Part shown: positions 4,230 to 27,230 of the stretch, one piece after another
Layout: every line of letters starts with the position of its first letter
How positions within the stretch are numbered: the stretch's first letter is position 1
DNA from: Octopus vulgaris
Lineage: Eukaryota
NCBI GenBank assembly: GCA_951406725.2
Contig: OX597842.1
Coordinates: 28,582,001 to 28,646,000 of the forward strand
Length of the DNA stretch: 64,000 nt
Direction of reading: 5' to 3'
Notes under the pieces: model-generated
What the model was told of the DNA's origin: nothing
Databases searched by the model: none
Seen by the model: the letters and a program-made list of their open reading frames with translations, nothing else
Made by a program: the position numbers and the translations under genes

Positions 4230-4266
4230 TCAACGCTATGATGTGGTGGCTTCAATGCTGGTCCAG
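4230..4266 (+). CDS. ANK-RING-death domain gene, internal exon (xQRYDVVASMLVQ)
   Basis: Pyrimidine tract + ttcag acceptor and CAG|gttagt donor. Ends in phase 0, matching the next exon; looks like an ankyrin second helix. Confidence 0.6.
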
Positions 4267-6915: not shown

Positions 6916-7125
6916 GATTCAGTGAAACTGGAAATTGCGAACAATCATAAAAGAACACCCTTACTGGAAGCCGTGTCTGAAGCGCACATCGGAATAGTCC
7001 ACAAACTTACAACATGCGGTGCAAACATAAATGCCGTCGACAAGGATGGCAATAATTGTTTGCATATTGCAGCAGAGAAAGAGGAATTTCATTCTGAAAA
7101 GGAACATATTCCCATTTTAGATGAG
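6916..7125 (+). CDS. ANK-RING-death domain gene, ankyrin-repeat exon
   Basis: aag|GAT TCA GTG...GAT GAG|gtaag; encodes RTPLLEAVSEAHIGIVHKLTTCGANINAVDKDGNNCLHIAA (ankyrin consensus). Confidence 0.92.
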
Positions 7126-8904: not shown

Positions 8905-9083
8905 TGCTGTGCTAAGCTTGGGTTGTCAACCGAACAGAGGCTCTCTAATGTAGGAGTCGCTTACTATCTAGCCCACCAGGGGGCCAACTTGTACAGGAAA
9001 AATAATGAGAATGTAGCTCTATTGGACCTCATTGGGGATGCAGATTTGAAAGAAAAATTTAAAGTATTATTCCCCCCACAAAA
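8905..9083 (+). CDS. ANK-RING-death domain gene, last ankyrin-like exon (Mind-bomb-like)
   Basis: tttgtag|TGC...CAA AA|gtaagt, phase 0 to 2; CCAKLGLSTEQRLSNVGVAYYLAHQGANLYRKNNENVALLDLIGDADLKEKF resembles the pre-RING segment of MIB proteins. Confidence 0.85.
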
Positions 9084-13823: not shown

Positions 13824-13963
13824 ATGTATGTTTTGTGAAGTGAATGAAGCCAGCATGGAGTTACAACCCTGTGCACATACTGTTTTATGTGAAGATTGTA
13901 GCAAAATTCAACTTAAAAGATGCCCTAAGTGTAAAACATGTATAGAAAGCAAAAGGAGAGTTG
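13824..13963 (+). CDS. ANK-RING-death domain gene, C3HC4 RING exon
   Basis: ccacag|A TGT...GTT G|gtaag, phase 2 to 1; CMFC-x11-CAH-x3-CEDC-x7-CPKC (MIB/IAP-type spacing). Confidence 0.9.
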
Positions 13964-15222
13964 GTAAGAATATGATTTGATGATCTGTCTGTTTGTCACA
14001 TGACATTAGGGAATGGAATAATGTTGTATCGACCCAGATCTGTCATAATCTGACAGACGTATGATAAAAGATGTCCCAGGTGTCTTTTCTCTTTGATAGT
14101 ATATCCATGACTACACCCACTGAATATTGTCTTTATCCAAGTAGGAAACCTGTCCCACATCAAAAGAGTACTGTCTGCAACATAAGACTAATACGTTTTA
14201 CTGAAATATAAATGAAATATCAATAAATCTCCAAGGTCCCTTCAGTAAACATCAACTTTTTATATTCAGTTGTCAGCTTTTATATGAGGTTAATGATTTA
14301 TAAGTATCTTGGGAAACTGATAATTAAGGACAACAGTACTTCCTATAACATCACAGTCAGCTTTGTAATGTAAGAATTTCAATGACAAAATCTCAACTGA
14401 GAGTTTAAGGATCTGACTCTTAGCGAGTCTTATATATTCTTGAGAATGAATTCTAGTGTCCCATTTCAGATATAACTCCTTTGCAATAATGTGTAGATAA
14501 ACAGTTTTAAGTTAAGGAGGTTTTATACAAATGTAATGTTTCAGGATACCTGTTATCACTTTCTGCTCCACCTGTGTAGAACCAATCATTGCTCACCTGG
14601 AAAAAGAAAAAGCTGCTTATTAAGGAGGATGAATGACATTGAAATATCTTCAGGTATTTCCTGAATCAGGTGGTATTCTGGTGAAGTGTGATGTGGGCAG
14701 TTAAAATTAAAGATTACCAACAGTAACATATAAAAATGAGAGCTGGGGTATGTTTATCCTTCCTGAAGCAATGTGTCATGCCTTTGTGGCCAGATCTTTG
14801 AAGACCAGTTTGGTTGACACTGGAATTTAGCAGAAGATGAGAAGAATATTGGTTAGTGAAGGTTCGAGATGAGAGGACAATGGCATGTCATGTGACCAGC
14901 ACAGACATAACAAAGGAAAGACAAAACTAAGAGAAAAAGAGTGTTATGAAGTGATAACCAAGTGAGAGAATTTCAGAATTGTTAGATTAGTATATAGGAT
15001 GTCTTAATAGAAAGATGAGATTTAGAAAGGTTTGCCTATTTTGTTGTGGTTCTAAATATTGAACTATTATATAGTAACAGCTTAGAAAGTGTTGACCGAA
15101 AGCATAGTGGTCACCAATTGACTATTGATGATATGAATGCCTTACAAAAATGGAATATAGATTATTAAAAGAGACAAAGAAATTTTACTATGAAGTATAA
15201 AACTTTGAAATGCTTATTTCAG

Positions 15223-15273
15223 TGTGTCCAAAGTCTGAAGAAAAAGCAGTCAAGATGGTTGCAGAAGCTGTTG
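15223..15273 (+). CDS. Linker micro-exon 1 (51 nt, VCPKSEEKAVKMVAEAV)
   Basis: tatttcag| ... G|gtgagt; symmetric phase 1-1, open in the RING frame. Confidence 0.75.
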
Positions 15274-15388
15274 GTGAGTATAAAATAACTGTAATTGATT
15301 TCTATAAATTTTACCTTCACCTGAGATATATTATTTGTGTGAATGACTGAGAACAGGTTCCATTCTTAATTTCCAATTCTTATTTCAG

Positions 15389-15424
15389 AATGTCCAAAGT
15401 GTAAAGGAAAAGTAAAATCTTTTG
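15389..15424 (+). CDS. Linker micro-exon 2 (36 nt, ECPKCKGKVKSF)
   Basis: tatttcag| ... G|gtgagt; phase 1-1, open. Confidence 0.7.
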
Positions 15425-15539
15425 GTGAGTATAAAATAACTGTAATTGATTTCTATAAATTTTACCTTCACCTGAGATATATTATTTGTGTGAATGACTG
15501 AGAACAGGTTCCATTCTTAATTTCCAATTCTTATTTCAG

Positions 15540-15590
15540 AATGTCCAAAGTCTGAAGAAAAAGCAGTCAAGACGGTTGCAGAATCTGTTG
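15540..15590 (+). CDS. Linker micro-exon 3 (51 nt, ECPKSEEKAVKTVAESV)
   Basis: Same splice signals; phase 1-1. Confidence 0.75.
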
Positions 15591-15705
15591 GTGAGTATAA
15601 AATAACTGTAATTGATTTCTATAAATTTTACCTTCACCTGAAATATATTATTTGTGTGAATGACTGAGAACAGGTTCCATTCTTAATTTCCAATTCTTAT
15701 TTCAG

Positions 15706-15756
15706 TGTGTCCAAAGTCTGAAGAAAAAGCAGTCCAGACGGTTGCAGAATCTGTTG
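15706..15756 (+). CDS. Linker micro-exon 4 (51 nt, VCPKSEEKAVQTVAESV)
   Basis: Same splice signals; phase 1-1. Confidence 0.75.
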
Positions 15757-16540
15757 GTGAGTATAAAATATCTGTAATAAATTTCTATAAATTTTATCTT
15801 CACCTGAAATATATTATTTGTGTGAATGACTGAGAACAGGTTCCATTGTTACATTTCTTTCGAATGGTTAGCGATAAAAGTAATTCTATTCGTTACCTAC
15901 AAATGCAAGAATATCCAATAAAGGGGTTTTATAGAAATATGGAAACATGAGACACAGGAAAAATGTCTTTCACGATGAGGCCAAAATACAAAAGATAAAA
16001 TATAAACCCTGAAGCTGTTCTCTCCCCATAATGAGATACATTCACTTTTCTTTCATCTCATTGTTGTCTCTCTCTCTCCTTCCCTGTTTCTTCCCTTCAT
16101 CTCTCTCTCTCTCTCTCTCTATGCATCTACATGTAGCAGCCTCTGTACTTTCCAGTCGTGTAACAACATGAATTGTATTTAAAATATTGATATTACAGAA
16201 ATTTAATAAAATGTCCAGCAGTGTTGGCTCTGTTGCTAAAATGGTTAAATTAGAAAAAAAAAACAATAGAGTTAATATTGTCTTTTGAATGAAGGAAGAA
16301 AAACATTTTGTTGTTTAATGGTAAACAGGTGAGTTAATGACAGTGTTTGTTTGTTGTACGTTTTCAATAAGTTTACTGATTATTGTTGTTGATGTTCTTG
16401 TTGAACAAGATGGTTAAGTTGAAAGCTTACAAGTGTGATCACCCTGTCTTCTTTTTTTCACTGTTAGTAAATCTATCATTACATCCATTAAATGATGTCT
16501 TTGTCCAAGTAAGAAGCTTTGGTCTGCTGCTGAGACAATT

Positions 16541-16574
<34 letters not shown>

Positions 16575-18071
16575 TAAGATGGACACTGGTTGCAAGATAC
16601 AAAACAATCGATGTTATTGTCCTCATCATTTACCGTCTGCTCTCCTTGCTTCCATGTAATGGATGGGTGATCACTGTCCAAGTCAGTTCTTATTCAGAGT
16701 TACTGTCCCCCTTGACTGCTTGAGAAACACATCTCCCTTAAACATTCCACCTTTTCTATGGTGGGATGCCCTCCCCAACACCAACCACTTCATAAAGAGT
16801 CCTGAGTACATTTTAATGTGGCACAAGCACTAGAAAGATTTTCATGTGTCCAACATTGAAACTGGAATAGCTGTAGGTTGCACACAATCAGTCTCTTGGT
16901 TTGTGCTTGTTATGGGGGTCGGCAGATTTATGAGAAGAAATTACTCAGGCGAAATCACCTCAGAAGACATTCATGGTTGACATAAAAATGCTAACAAGAG
17001 ATCCAAAGTATATGCAATCAGTCCTAGATAGATTGGATGGACTAATTAATTGCTCAAGAATGCTGTTTGAAACAAATAATGAATGCATTCTGACATTGTG
17101 AAAGATCAACAGAAGCAAGTGAAGTTCAAAATAGCAGGAGAAACGATGTGAAAGGTTAAAGAGTAACTTGTAAAACGTTTTGGACTGTGGTAGACGATCT
17201 CATTGTCCGATAAGAGTAGAGGCATTGCAGAAACCGAGGATGGGCAATAAGCATTTGCCAAGTCAAAACTTCTGGGCAAAAACAAGATTTGGTGCTTGAA
17301 GTTTGATCTATATCACCATCTTGATAATATATTCTTAAATATCACTTCTTTTGTACCATTTCAGATGTTTTTCCTTTGCGATAATCTGTGTATGAACATT
17401 TGCATGTTGTTAAAGATGTTTTGTGCAAGTATACAGTGTTTTAGGATACTTGCTATCACTTTCTGTTTCACCTGTGTAGAACTAATCATTGCTCATCAGG
17501 AAAGAAAAGCATTTCATTAAGGAGTCCTTAAATATTTCCTGAATCAGATGAAATTCTGGTGAACTGTGAGTTGCATAGTTTAAAATTAAAGATTAAAAGC
17601 AGCAACGTTTGACAAAGATAACAGGTGTGACATGAGTTTGTGTCAAGGTCGTTGATGACCAGCTTGGTTGACATCAGAATTAAGCAAAAGATGAGGGGAA
17701 TGTTGATTAAGTGAAGTCCAGTGGTGAGGGGACAATGCCATGTCATAGGTTTAGCATGGATATAAGAGAGAAGAAAGATAAAAGGTGTTAACATGTGATC
17801 ATTAAATAAGATGATTGCAACGTTGTTAGATTAAGTAGGATGTCTTAAGAGAAAAAGGAGGCTTATGAAGGTCAGTCTATTTTGTTATGGACCTAAATAT
17901 TGAGCCATTATATAGGACCACTGTAGGAAGTATAAAAGTGTCAACCAAACCTATAGTGGTCAGAAGTTGTCCATTGATGATAGGAGTGTCTTACAATAAT
18001 AATATATAAACCATTAACAGAGATCGGGAAATTGTGCTATGAAGTGTAAAATTTGGAAATATTTATTTCAG

Positions 18072-18143
18072 AGTCTGTAATGGTAGAGGAGAAGCATCTT
18101 CATAGGGTGTCCCAAAAGTTGGCAGGTAAATGGATGGAACTTG
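18072..18143 (+). CDS. ANK-RING-death domain gene, death domain exon 1 (ESVMVEEKHLHRVSQKLAGKWMEL)
   Basis: tatttcag|AG...CTT G|gtgagt, phase 1-1; L..VS.KL...W..LG is the death-domain helix 1-2 pattern. Confidence 0.85.
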
Positions 18144-19132
18144 GTGAGTATAAAATACCCAATTAATTTCTATAAATTTTACTTTCAGCTAAACTTTTGT
18201 TTGTTTGAATGACTGAGAACCGGTTCCATTCCTAATTTCCAATTGAAAGTTTAGCTAAAAAGTAAAGCTATCACTGATATTTCATAAAATATCTACAGAC
18301 GTCAGCACGGTTGTAAAATGTATAAATTAGAAGGTCCAGTAGAGTTAATACTATCGTTTGTAAAAGGGGACTCAAAAATATTGTTGTTTAAGAGTAAACA
18401 GGTGAATTAATGACAATGTTTTTGCTTGTTTACACTTTTACTAAGTTTACTAGTAGAGTGTTGTTGTTGTTGATGTTTATTTCGGCAGATATCTGCCTTA
18501 ATCTGGCAGAATTAAGGGGAAAGGGTTCCATTGCTCTTTCTCTTGGGTGAAGAGGACCACATTATCAAGTGTAACCTTTTTAAAATGAGAGTGTGCATTG
18601 TGTGGGACATGTTGTCATCTCTCCCCTGGCCAGTCTGTTTTTCTATATTTACTGTAATTCTTTAGTCCCAGGTCAACATATATTTCCTGTCTCTATAGAA
18701 GACAGGCCCCATTGTTGATTGTGTTCATGGCTGGATTGAACTCAGCATTGTAAGTTAATGAAACACTCATTTATATTAGAAGAAAAAGAATCTCAACAGA
18801 AAATTCAAACTCAACTTGATCTTGTTTCTCAATTGAAATCATTTCACTCTCCTTTACATTACAAATGTCACATGGAAAGGCATGAACATCACAATATCCC
18901 ATTTCCCCTTCTCCGACAGTTTAACACAACATAAAATATCATTTATACAATGCTCCTATTATTTACAGCAATGTCTTCTACCTCCCTATGGTACCTATAT
19001 ACATCTAGATAGAATGAAGCATAGAGAAATGTCTTTACCAGGTACATTGAGCGGTGCTGGGGATTAGATTTGAACCTTTGATCCCTGACTCAAGGGATCA
19101 TGACAATATCCCCTGAGTCAGCTGATAGAAAC

Positions 19133-21848: not shown

Positions 21849-22054
21849 GAAGGGAATTAGAAATTAAACAAACTGACCTGGAAATCATCAGGCATGACTA
21901 TCCTCAAAGCGTTAGGGAACAAGGCTTCCAGATGCTGCTCAAATGGCATCAGCTTTGTGATCGAGAGAAACATACACTTCAAATATTAAAAGCAGCTCTT
22001 AAAGAAACTGAATGTTATGATGCACTCAAATGTTTACCATCAGAATTCAATTGA
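21849..22054 (+). CDS. ANK-RING-death domain gene, terminal death domain exon
   Basis: ttttgcag|GA AGG...TGA; GRELEIKQTDLEIIRHDYPQSVREQGFQMLLKW...LKAALKETEC, a typical death domain. Confidence 0.9.
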
Positions 22055-22181: not shown

Positions 22182-23928
22182 GGATCTTTACCTTTTGACC
22201 GGCAGATTTAGAAAATAATTTTTTGGAACTAAACACTTTCAAACTTCGTATTCTGGTAGAATGTGTCGTATAAAACATCTTTTACTCTTATCGTTTTTGA
22301 GAAAAGTTTATATTTACAAAGTTATTTCGTGTTAAATTTGTCGTATTTCGGTAATTTCAACCAATCAATGGCGTGTATTCATCTGAATAAAATTACTGCC
22401 GTTGTTTGTCAACAACAACTTCTGGCGGTGTATATTTCGTTTGTCACTGTTATTTATGACATATTTCATCTCAGTTATGTTTGTATGAAAAACGAGTCTA
22501 TCTGAAACATGTTTACTTCATGGCACCACCAGAATCGTTCGTGCATTTCTACTGGTTTTAGTTGTTTTTTCCTGTTTTTCAGCTACTATTTTCGCTAAGA
22601 CTTTTTTAACCCTAACCCTAAAACCCTAGCCCTAACACTAAAACCCTAGCCCTAACACTAAAACCTTAACTCTAACCCTAAAACCCTAAACCTAACCCTA
22701 AAACCTTAGCCCTGACACTAAAACCCTAGCCCTAACACTAAAACCTTAACTCTAACCCTAAAACCCTAACCCTAACCCTAAAACCTTAGCCCTGACATTA
22801 AAACCCTAGCCCTAACACTAAAACCTTAACTCTAACCCTAAAACCCTAACCCTAACACCTTAGCCCTGACATTAAAACCCTAGCCCTAACACTAAAACCT
22901 TAACTCTAACCCTAAAACCCTAAACCTAACCCTAAAACCTTAGCCCTGACACTAAAACCCTAGCCCTAACACTAAAACCTTAACTCTAACCCTAAAACCC
23001 TAACCCTAACACCTTAGCCCTGACATTAAAACCCTAGCCCTAACACTAAAACCTTAACTCTAACCCTAAAACCCTAAACCTAACCCTAAAACCTTAGCCC
23101 TGACACTAAAACCCTAGCCCTAACACTAAAACCTTAACTCTAACCCTAAAACCCTAAACCTAACCCTAAAACCTTAGCCTTGACATTAAAACCCTAGCCC
23201 TAACACTAAAACCTTAACTCTAACCCTAAAACCCTAACCCTAACACCTTAGCCCTGACATTAAAACCCTAGCCCTAACACTAAAACCTTAACTCTAACCC
23301 TAAAACCCTAAACCTAACCCTAAAACCTTAGCCCTGACACTAAAACCCTAGCCCTAACACTAAAACCTTAACTCTAACCCTAAAACCCTAACCCTAACAC
23401 CTTAGCCCTGACACTAAAACCCTAGCCCTAACACTAAAACCTTAACTCTAACCCTAAAACCCTAACCCTAACCCTAAAACCTTAGCCCTGACACTAAAAC
23501 CCTAGCCCTAACACTAAAACCTTAACTCTAACCCTAACCCTAAAACCCTAACCCTAACCCTAACACCTTAAAGCTAAAACCAGTACAAACGCACGAACGA
23601 TGTCATAAATAACAACAACAAACGAAATATATACCACCAGTTGTTGTTGACAAACATCATCATCATCATCATCATCCTTTAACATCTGCTTTGCATGCTA
23701 GCATGGGTTAGCAGTAATTTTATTCAGCTGAATACACATCATTGATTGGTTGAAATTACTGAAATACGACAAATTTAACACGAAATAACTTTGTAAATAT
23801 AAACTTTTCTCAAAAACGCTAAGAGTAAAAGATGTTTTATACGACACATTCTACCAGAATACGAAGTTTGAAAGTGTTTAGTTACAAGAAATTATTTTCT
23901 AAATCTGCCGGTCGAAAGGTAAAGATCC
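22182..23928. mobile_element. Non-autonomous long-TIR (foldback; Merlin- or MULE-like) DNA transposon with telomere-like core
   Basis: Ends GGATCTTTACC...GGTAAAGATCC; inverted arms ~22182-22561 and ~23574-23928; 8-bp direct repeat GGATTTGG at 22174-81 and 23929-36. Confidence 0.9.
22607..23570 (+). repeat. Interstitial telomere-like (CCCTAA-derived) higher-order repeat, 20-bp monomers in 80/75-bp units
   Basis: Unit aaaaccctagccctaacact-aaaaccttaactctaaccct-aaaaccctaaacctaaccct-aaaaccttagccctgacact, repeated roughly 11-12 times. Confidence 0.92.
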
Positions 23929-25579: not shown

Positions 25580-27230
25580 CTAGCAGAATTGCCCGGCGTT
25601 GCTCGGGGCTCAATTGCTTGAAAGTACTGTTAATGATTGCACTGAATTATGATGATTATTCAGGCAAATATTGATATAAGCTTACGGTGGGAGATAAGGA
25701 CTTAACGATCAAACGTGTGCCATTGCATTGTTTTGGGGGAACCAAATTTCTGATGAGCATTACCGGGGCACCAACTTTAAGTTTGAGAAAATGTGGTGGT
25801 AGTCCGGGGTGCTCAAAGGAATTGAGTACCTCTATTGGATAGTTGATGACGTCCTCTGGGTCAGGAGTTGTATCGATAGACTGATATACATAGACTTCCC
25901 CAGGAATGAGTTTTAGCATTTCATCATTAATATGGTGAACAGTTTTATTCCTCGGGGCCAGTATAGCCTTTTTGCCAATCCAATCCATATTCTGATAATT
26001 AGCTTGTAGATCTGGGAACACTGCATCTCTGAGATCAGAAGGCGTCTTAACAATGTTACAAATGGAATCGATGGCAATATTACCATTTTCATCCCCTGGT
26101 ATTTTGCCTTCGCCAAGTGCAAGGAGGGTGTGAGGAAATGCCGCTGATGTGATATTACGTCGCATATGAGCACGCATATTGGTGTGAAGTTTGAGAGTTA
26201 CTTCCCTTTATTTAAAAAAATATGCATTAAAATGGAAAAAAATGATGGTAAATTATTTGTAAAATCATAGACTCATCGTAGACGCGCTAATACCCAGAAG
26301 GGCTCGATATGAATCACGACTATAAGATACCCGGTTTTGGTTAAACTGCATCGCAAAATGTGGGAGTAGTTAGGAATCTAAATCGGAGTAGACAGACACA
26401 CAACCTTTCTTTTATATATAAATATTTTCATCCTAAAAAACTTTGTATGGATTGAATGGTTACCTCTATGGAAATATATACACGCACATTATACATACAT
26501 GTGTGTATAGATGAATATATAAATACATTTAAATATCTATATACACTTTTGGGCGATCTTTCTGTTTATTAGAGATAACTTTAGATCTTATTTTCGTCCT
26601 AAAAAACTTTGTATGGAGTGAATGGTTACCTCTATGGAAATATATACACACACATTATACATACATCTGTGTATAGATGAATATATAAATACATTTAAAC
26701 ATCTATATACACTTTTGGGCGATCTTTCTGCTACTTGGATATAGGTCTTATATTCGTCCTAAAAAACTTTCCTGTCACACTCACGCACACGCACACACAC
26801 ACACACACGCACCCTCACACACACACACACGCACACATACACACACTCACACACACGCACACACACACGTTAGCTTACAATTTTATTTATATATTTGCGT
26901 GTCTATGTGTGTAAAGAGGAAGTGGCAGAGTGAAAGAGTCACTCAGTACAAAAAGTGAATTACTTTCACTTTATTCGTTGCACACTGTGTGTGTGCATGT
27001 GCGTGTGGTGTAGGCCACACTAAGAAAAGCATTTGACTTATACACCACAATGTGAGTTTTCTCTAAATTTTGCTTAATTGGGGTTGAAATTTTAAAAACT
27101 GGACCTGGCACGACCCGATGCATTCTACTGTTAAAAATGCTAGGTAAATTGTAATTGAAGAAATCCTATATTGTAGATTTCTATAAGAGACAAAGGGAGG
27201 CAGATAAAATCTGCCTTTTATAATAAGAGA
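25580..27230 (-). mobile_element. Internally deleted Helitron carrying a PIF1-type helicase fragment
   Basis: On the minus strand: 5' TC (27230), 3' hairpin cccgagcaacgccggg then CTAG (25580-83), inserted at an A|T site. An internal ~168-bp tandem duplication lies at ~26425-26730. Confidence 0.85.
25656..26200 (-). pseudogene. Helitron RepHel PIF1 helicase fragment
   Basis: KAILAPRNKTVHHIN, YPIEVLNSFEHPGLPPHFLKLKVGAPVMLIRNL..CNGTRL are PIF1 motifs. Confidence 0.9.

Follow-up and report, generated by a model that had tools for sequence, protein, structure and literature searches.

The stretch analysed here, a 64,000-nt window of Octopus vulgaris DNA (contig OX597842.1, 28,582,001-28,646,000; coordinates below are those of the window, on the + strand unless stated), carries an intact Octopus ANK-RING-DD gene (ankyrin, RING and death domain, DD) with a tandem array of four short exons between the RING and the death domain. 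This array is a real, expressed-type, fast-changing cassette. The reading towards which we incline is that its units are tandem, frame-preserving copies of a shortened DD first exon, which would form a disordered linker whose length depends on the set of units skipped and whose fourth unit would dock LC8. The gene family is an octopus one and apparently undescribed; a literature search at title and abstract level, with most subscription journals outside its coverage, returned no paper describing either the family or the arrangement.

Structure of the gene and of the array

Two ankyrin-region exons, of 37 nt (4230..4266) and 210 nt (6916..7125), and the 179-nt exon preceding the RING (8905..9083) were located by tblastn with P0001, all with AG/GT ends and one open frame, and three further long ankyrin exons lie upstream, within 9 kb. 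The RING exon (13824..13963; C3HC4 type, Pfam zf-C3HC4_3, E 4.7e-8) ends in CPKCKTCIESKRRV at a phase-1 donor and is identical to part of P0001, an ankyrin-RING-death-domain protein labelled Octopus vulgaris. The death domain is encoded by a 72-nt first exon of phase 1-1 (18072..18143), covering helix 1 and the start of helix 2 (on the paralogue P0006 the Pfam Death match runs from residue 401 and the modelled helix spans 399-408), and by a second, last coding exon with the stop included (21849..22054; Pfam Death, E 1.1e-6); the 23-residue DD first exon alone gave no Pfam match. When joined, the ten in-window exons give a single open frame, 343 codons long and closed by a stop, and the Pfam matches agree with the earlier note in placing the array as a linker between RING and death domain. 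In P0001/P0037, the database model matching the locus, neither the DD first exon nor any of the four units is included, and the feature is therefore absent from that annotation. Three protein searches, which rely on shared words, returned 9, 23 and 21 entries, every one of them under an Octopus label.

The array itself is built exactly as the earlier note had described it, with four micro-exons of 51, 36, 51 and 51 nt, all phase 1-1, the same peptides and introns of 115 nt. Unit 1 (15223..15273, 51 nt, CPKSEEKAVKMVAEAV), which is joined to the RING exon, is without a QT anchor; unit 2 (15389..15424, 36 nt, CPKCKGKVKSF), on sequence comparison, has a 15-nt in-frame deletion and contains a CxxC; unit 3 (15540..15590, 51 nt, CPKSEEKAVKTVAESV) has K where the Q anchor would stand; and unit 4 (15706..15756, 51 nt, CPKSEEKAVQTVAESV), from which a joint leads to the DD first exon, carries the LC8-type motif EEKAVQTV. 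TRF and alignment delimit three introns of 115 nt (15274-15388, 15425-15539 and 15591-15705, together spanning 15274..15705), TRF giving a period of 166, 3.7 copies and a score of 822, and unit 4 is followed by a partial fourth intron copy, lacking an acceptor, to about 15850. All four exons are flanked by cttatttcag upstream and gtgagtat downstream. The introns differ pairwise at 0, 1 and 1 of 115 sites and the 51-nt exons at 4, 3 and 3 of 51. All 16 subsets of units, placed between the phase-1 end of the RING exon and the phase 1-1 DD exon, translate without a stop (16/16), and the claim that any subset can be skipped without a frameshift holds. An assembly artefact is rejected in view of similar four-unit arrays in O. 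sinensis models and of joints at the predicted sites. It may be noted that retention of an array intron adds 25 codons and then a stop (15274-15351), and the O. sinensis model P0054 ends in this way, without a death domain.

Elsewhere in the window, a telomere-like array of AACCCT variants of about 950 bp (22607-23572), with higher-order periods of 80/154/234 bp and inverted flanks, lies just after the gene. On the opposite strand we noticed a 421-codon open frame (819-2084, -), presumably the C-terminal part of a LINE reverse transcriptase, and a 183-codon frame (25656-26207, -) which we take to be a Helitron/PIF1 helicase fragment.

Splicing of the units

The splice data were contigs of four runs from three studies, presumed to be RNA and matched at 90% likeness, with 15 of 105 joints listed. 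We observed the GT-AG joint 13963->15223 (RING exon to unit 1) in X3 and X15, the GT-AG joint 15756->18072 (unit 4 to DD first exon) in X3 and X9, and the GT-AG joint 18143->21849 in X15, where unit-to-unit joints were also found. Inclusion of such micro-exons in transcripts at the predicted sites is thus supported by X3, X9 and X15, at family level and in presumed RNA. The evidence stays at that level because paralogues give identical joints: those from the RING exon to unit 1 and from unit 4 to the DD exon match adjacent joints of paralogues with 0 mismatches over 50 nt. Among the joints which skipping would produce, RING exon to unit 3, RING exon to unit 4 and unit 2 to unit 4 likewise show 0 mismatches to paralogues' adjacent joints, and RING exon to unit 2 and unit 3 to DD show 1. 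The remaining five (RING exon to DD, unit 1 to unit 3, unit 1 to unit 4, unit 1 to DD and unit 2 to DD) differ by 3 mismatches or more from every adjacent joint of a paralogue and would be diagnostic for the locus; none of them is among the joints listed (15 of 105). In X9 the RING exon is also joined to an exon resembling unit 3; this joint is ambiguous, since paralogues share the same joint sequence.

RefSeq isoform models require RNA-supported introns. For a four-unit paralogue of O. sinensis, 15 of the 16 subsets are represented among the 21 RefSeq isoforms listed, and the missing subset, a three-unit one, would fit the unlisted isoform X4. Skip isoforms were also noticed at three further O. 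sinensis genes, and O. bimaculoides has isoforms that skip another 17-residue linker stretch. The combinatorial skipping proposed earlier is thus seen in the RefSeq models of the O. sinensis paralogue, while at the locus itself the listed joints are common to paralogues. Taken together, we regard it as nearly certain that the units are spliced in the octopus family, and skipping probably occurs at this locus.

Two further features of the DD first exon may be mentioned. An internal TAG 15 nt into it (18086-18087) matches an alternative acceptor used in 6 of the 21 listed O. sinensis isoforms. At eight paralogous loci (L027-L031, L035, L041 and L046) a degenerate copy of the 72-nt exon precedes the true one and forms an extra linker exon that can be skipped.

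Origin, copy number and divergence of the units

By alignment, the region 14430..15390 is an old duplicate of the intron-exon block at about 17320-18250 (DD first exon and flanks), and repeat families D3, D6 and D8-D10 connect the two at 73-86%. The flanks of unit 1 are 73% and 82% identical to those of the DD first exon, as against 55% and 52% to those of the RING exon; the latter values are at background level, and an origin of the units from the RING tail is rejected. Unit 4 aligned with another type of DD first exon (z 3.5) and with cysteine-free 51-nt exons on C31 (z about 10), but not with the RING tail (z 0.7). The C31 exons (L050-L057) are older 51-nt linker exons with introns of 0.8-2.6 kb, without cysteines and with the motifs KASQT and KETQT. 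Unit 2 corresponds to a 51-nt unit minus 15 nt and scored z 2.2 against the RING tail and 4.2 against the DD exon. The earlier remark that exon 2 repeats the CPKCK of the RING tail therefore stands at the peptide level only, flanks and sequence pointing to descent from the DD first exon; as unit 2 is a shortened 51-nt unit of probable DD-exon ancestry, its CPKCK most likely arose by point changes. From these sequence comparisons we infer that the DD first exon is the parent type of the units, and that the path would have led from the 72-nt DD exon through a duplicated block and a 51-nt linker exon to the 166-bp tandem unit.

A first genome search, which scored 40 of 341 candidates, gave at least 106 matches, mostly on C29, and the counts are lower bounds. 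At least 27 loci on C29 and C27, the present one included, hold at least 99 units, of which 76 measure 51 nt and 17 measure 36 nt, while 6 are frameshifted singletons; these counts exclude the C31 loci, L047-L049 and L058-L060, and treat the two arrays of L024 (3 and 5 units) as one locus. Eight of the 99 units are broken (6 frameshifted, 2 with dead acceptors). Array size ranges from 1 to 8 units, and L048 has none. Seven loci which differ from the present one by 0.6-2.0% over the upstream 700 nt have 5, 1, 1, 1, 4, 1 and 1 units; among locus pairs within 2% the unit count differs in 63 of 76 (L024 arrays counted together), and for 56 of 94 units the nearest unit sits at another locus. As counts differ between near-identical loci and nearest units lie elsewhere, unequal crossover and gene conversion probably both took part. 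The variable copy number expected earlier is thus borne out by these paralogues, from which unequal crossover as its cause is deduced. Paralogues with a frameshift or stop in the RING or DD exons, or with a degenerate RING, were also noticed (L021, L022, L040, L044 and L048).

Across the 76 units of 51 nt, exons carry 1.04 variants per site and introns 0.57 (P 0.004). The exon excess is partly a matter of base composition and CpG, GC columns having 1.11 vs 0.95 variants per site, but exons remain the more variable at AT columns (0.85 vs 0.43). Synonymous and replacement sites are alike (0.97 vs 1.06 variants per site, P 0.87), and pairwise pN, pS and intron divergence amount to 0.122, 0.110 and 0.036 within loci and to 0.141, 0.141 and 0.053 between them. 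As pN and pS are roughly the same, this comparison of replacement and synonymous rates gives no indication of positive selection at the amino-acid level. No stop occurs in the 93 in-frame units against 2.6 expected, a depletion which is not significant (P 0.07). The earlier observation that exons are more divergent than introns therefore holds as to the difference itself; adaptive amino-acid divergence is not supported. Unit sequence drifts near neutrally within the clade, which implies that most of the unit variety is probably tolerated, not selected; that unit variation is under selection rather than tolerated seems to us somewhat doubtful.

The LC8-type motif and the linker

An LC8-type motif, K/R-x-V-Q-T, is conserved in the unit in three Octopus species; at the present locus it occurs in unit 4 only. 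The earlier note mentions neither this motif nor the large cluster of paralogues. In 21 more distant family proteins of three species, the pattern K/R-x-(T,S,V,I,A,C)-Q-T, fixed after the sequences were seen, occurs 18 times in 945 linker residues and 0 times in 6708 non-linker residues, with 0.32 expected after shuffling, and it is present in 11 of the 21; these counts are not independent because the units are homologous. The simpler xQT is found in 22 of the 74 51-nt units that are intact and is missing altogether from 17 of 27 loci. LC8-type motifs number 0-6 per locus, with up to 6 at L040, 4 at L038 and 1 among the four units here. The Octopus genome encodes an 89-residue LC8 (L061:1489-1755). 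Gephyrin binds LC8 via EDKGVQCE, which the forms SDKGVQTV and EEKAVQTV of octopus units resemble, non-TQT anchors reportedly tend to weaker binding (PMC12057147), and motif number and spacing affect assembly in ASCIZ (PMC10046861). In the model of the paralogue P0006, residues 289-395 have pLDDT under 50 and the DD helix starts at 399; the underlying alignment is shallow (21 sequences) and the low pLDDT also spans the shortened RING. The model suggests that the linker is likely disordered, and we consider unit 4, by its sequence, a candidate LC8 site that may well be a binding one.

Discussion

We propose that a duplication of 166 bp joined the intron that follows the exon to the acceptor and so would have created a new intron of 115 nt, and that unequal crossover and gene conversion may then have altered unit number and mixed units across loci. 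Linker length could range from 0 to 63 residues and would likely be set by exon skipping, which at this locus is presumed to proceed as in the models of the O. sinensis paralogue. Units with K/R-x-V-Q-T would bind the dimerising hub LC8 and so pair two ligase chains beside the RING, and units with K for Q would serve as plain spacers.

The observations also have to be weighed against other explanations. The array may be a neutral by-product, a minisatellite-like 166-bp unit with a symmetric exon which grows and shrinks, its isoforms being splicing noise and the LC8 motif a decaying relic. The near equality of pN and pS, the presence among 99 units of 6 with a frameshift and 2 with a dead acceptor, the insignificant depletion of stops (0 vs 2.6 expected, P 0.07), the absence of xQT from 17 of 27 loci, the paralogue L048 without any unit and an exon excess partly due to base composition (GC columns 1.11 vs 0.95) are all in line with this. 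Yet the six frameshifted exons are all single copies, whereas the in-frame 15-nt deletion has spread to 17 units, the motif is retained in distant members of three species while flanks diverge, and AT columns are more variable in exons (0.85 vs 0.43); on balance we think a mere neutral by-product rather unlikely. It could also be argued that the exons are constitutive, that variety exists only between paralogues or alleles, and that annotated skip isoforms are mis-mapped reads of sister genes, as the skip joints equal to paralogue adjacent joints (RING exon to units 3 and 4, unit 2 to unit 4), or 1 mismatch away (RING exon to unit 2, unit 3 to DD), would allow. Moreover, one RefSeq isoform series appears, from its consecutive accessions, to mix two RING types or paralogues. 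However, the O. sinensis gene with 22 isoforms is marked by a distinctive deletion in its RING close to the donor, found among the fetched loci only in L023, so that its RING-to-unit joints should map uniquely, and skip isoforms recur at several genes; we hold constitutive inclusion to be quite improbable.

A role for the cysteines is a further alternative, in which CPKC-type units would add zinc ligands, as a two-chain hook or as a substitute for the last RING knuckle, switched by splicing. CxxC is present in 34 of 93 in-frame units, and L023 and its O. sinensis counterpart have a RING without the last CxxC, the Pfam RING match extending over 289-337 with unit A and over 289-323 without it. 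Against this, the RING is complete at the present locus, which has a single CxxC unit, the older C31 51-nt exons are cysteine-free, and the region is unstructured in the P0006 model, which leaves this explanation very improbable for the array. As an observation apart, in L023 (G000:C29:21230000-21239999), of the P0006 family, the RING exon has six residues deleted and units 1 and 2 begin with CPKC, and splicing in this gene might complete the RING.

Among known systems, Mind bomb 1/2 (the database label is 'MIB2-like') shares ankyrin repeats followed by a C3HC4-type RING, and in a PDB sequence search with P0039 ankyrin-type proteins were among the best 60 of 428 matches and MIB1 (8v0e) was matched. 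Mind bomb proteins have N-terminal substrate domains and a RING at the C-terminal end, whereas the octopus protein has a death domain at its C-terminus and occurs in dozens of clustered copies; Pfam scans of P0001, P0006 and P0029 found no MIB N-terminal domains. In Dscam1, too, tandem exon copies diversify one gene, but these are mutually exclusive and encode parts of folded domains, while the annotated octopus isoforms include any number of units. The MEGs (micro-exon genes) of Schistosoma mansoni share short symmetric skippable exons, exon duplication, a multigene family and many isoforms, and have mainly exons of 36 nt or less, long introns and secreted products (PMC8293314; bioRxiv 10.1101/2023.06.21.545858). 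The octopus array differs in having four exons of 36-51 nt, 115-nt introns and a single linker in a multi-domain ANK-RING-DD protein, and a length of 36 nt or less is seen in 1 of its 10 in-window coding exons; it resembles the symmetric-exon variation of MEGs in how it works, without being a MEG itself. With their 36-51 nt the units also exceed the 3-30 nt by which micro-exons are defined in one source (PMC13627293). With multivalent LC8/DYNLL clients (ASCIZ, PMC10046861; gephyrin, PMC12057147) the octopus linkers share Q-anchored motifs of 8-10 residues in a likely disordered region. They differ in that each motif has its own duplicated symmetric exon and that the predicted valency varies by splicing and copy number; the present locus, with one predicted site, falls outside a class marked by several motifs.

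ANK, RING and DD are cytoplasmic domain types. More tentatively, and in our view less probably true than not, the family may comprise octopus-specific ANK-RING-DD intracellular sensors which reused copies of the DD first exon as plug-in dimerisation modules, so that pairing or activity would differ per gene and per cell. Such modules would be the LC8 sites and the CxxC knuckles, the latter of which could complete the truncated RING in one paralogue.

One genome thus preserves the intermediates from a folded-domain exon through a linker exon to a minisatellite-like cassette, the copy number of which shifts before the flanks have diverged by 1%. Should the LC8 reading be correct, the number of motifs in a RING ligase would be determined one exon at a time; multivalent LC8 binding could then be studied in a simple test system, and the array may be a source of diversity in cephalopod intracellular signalling.
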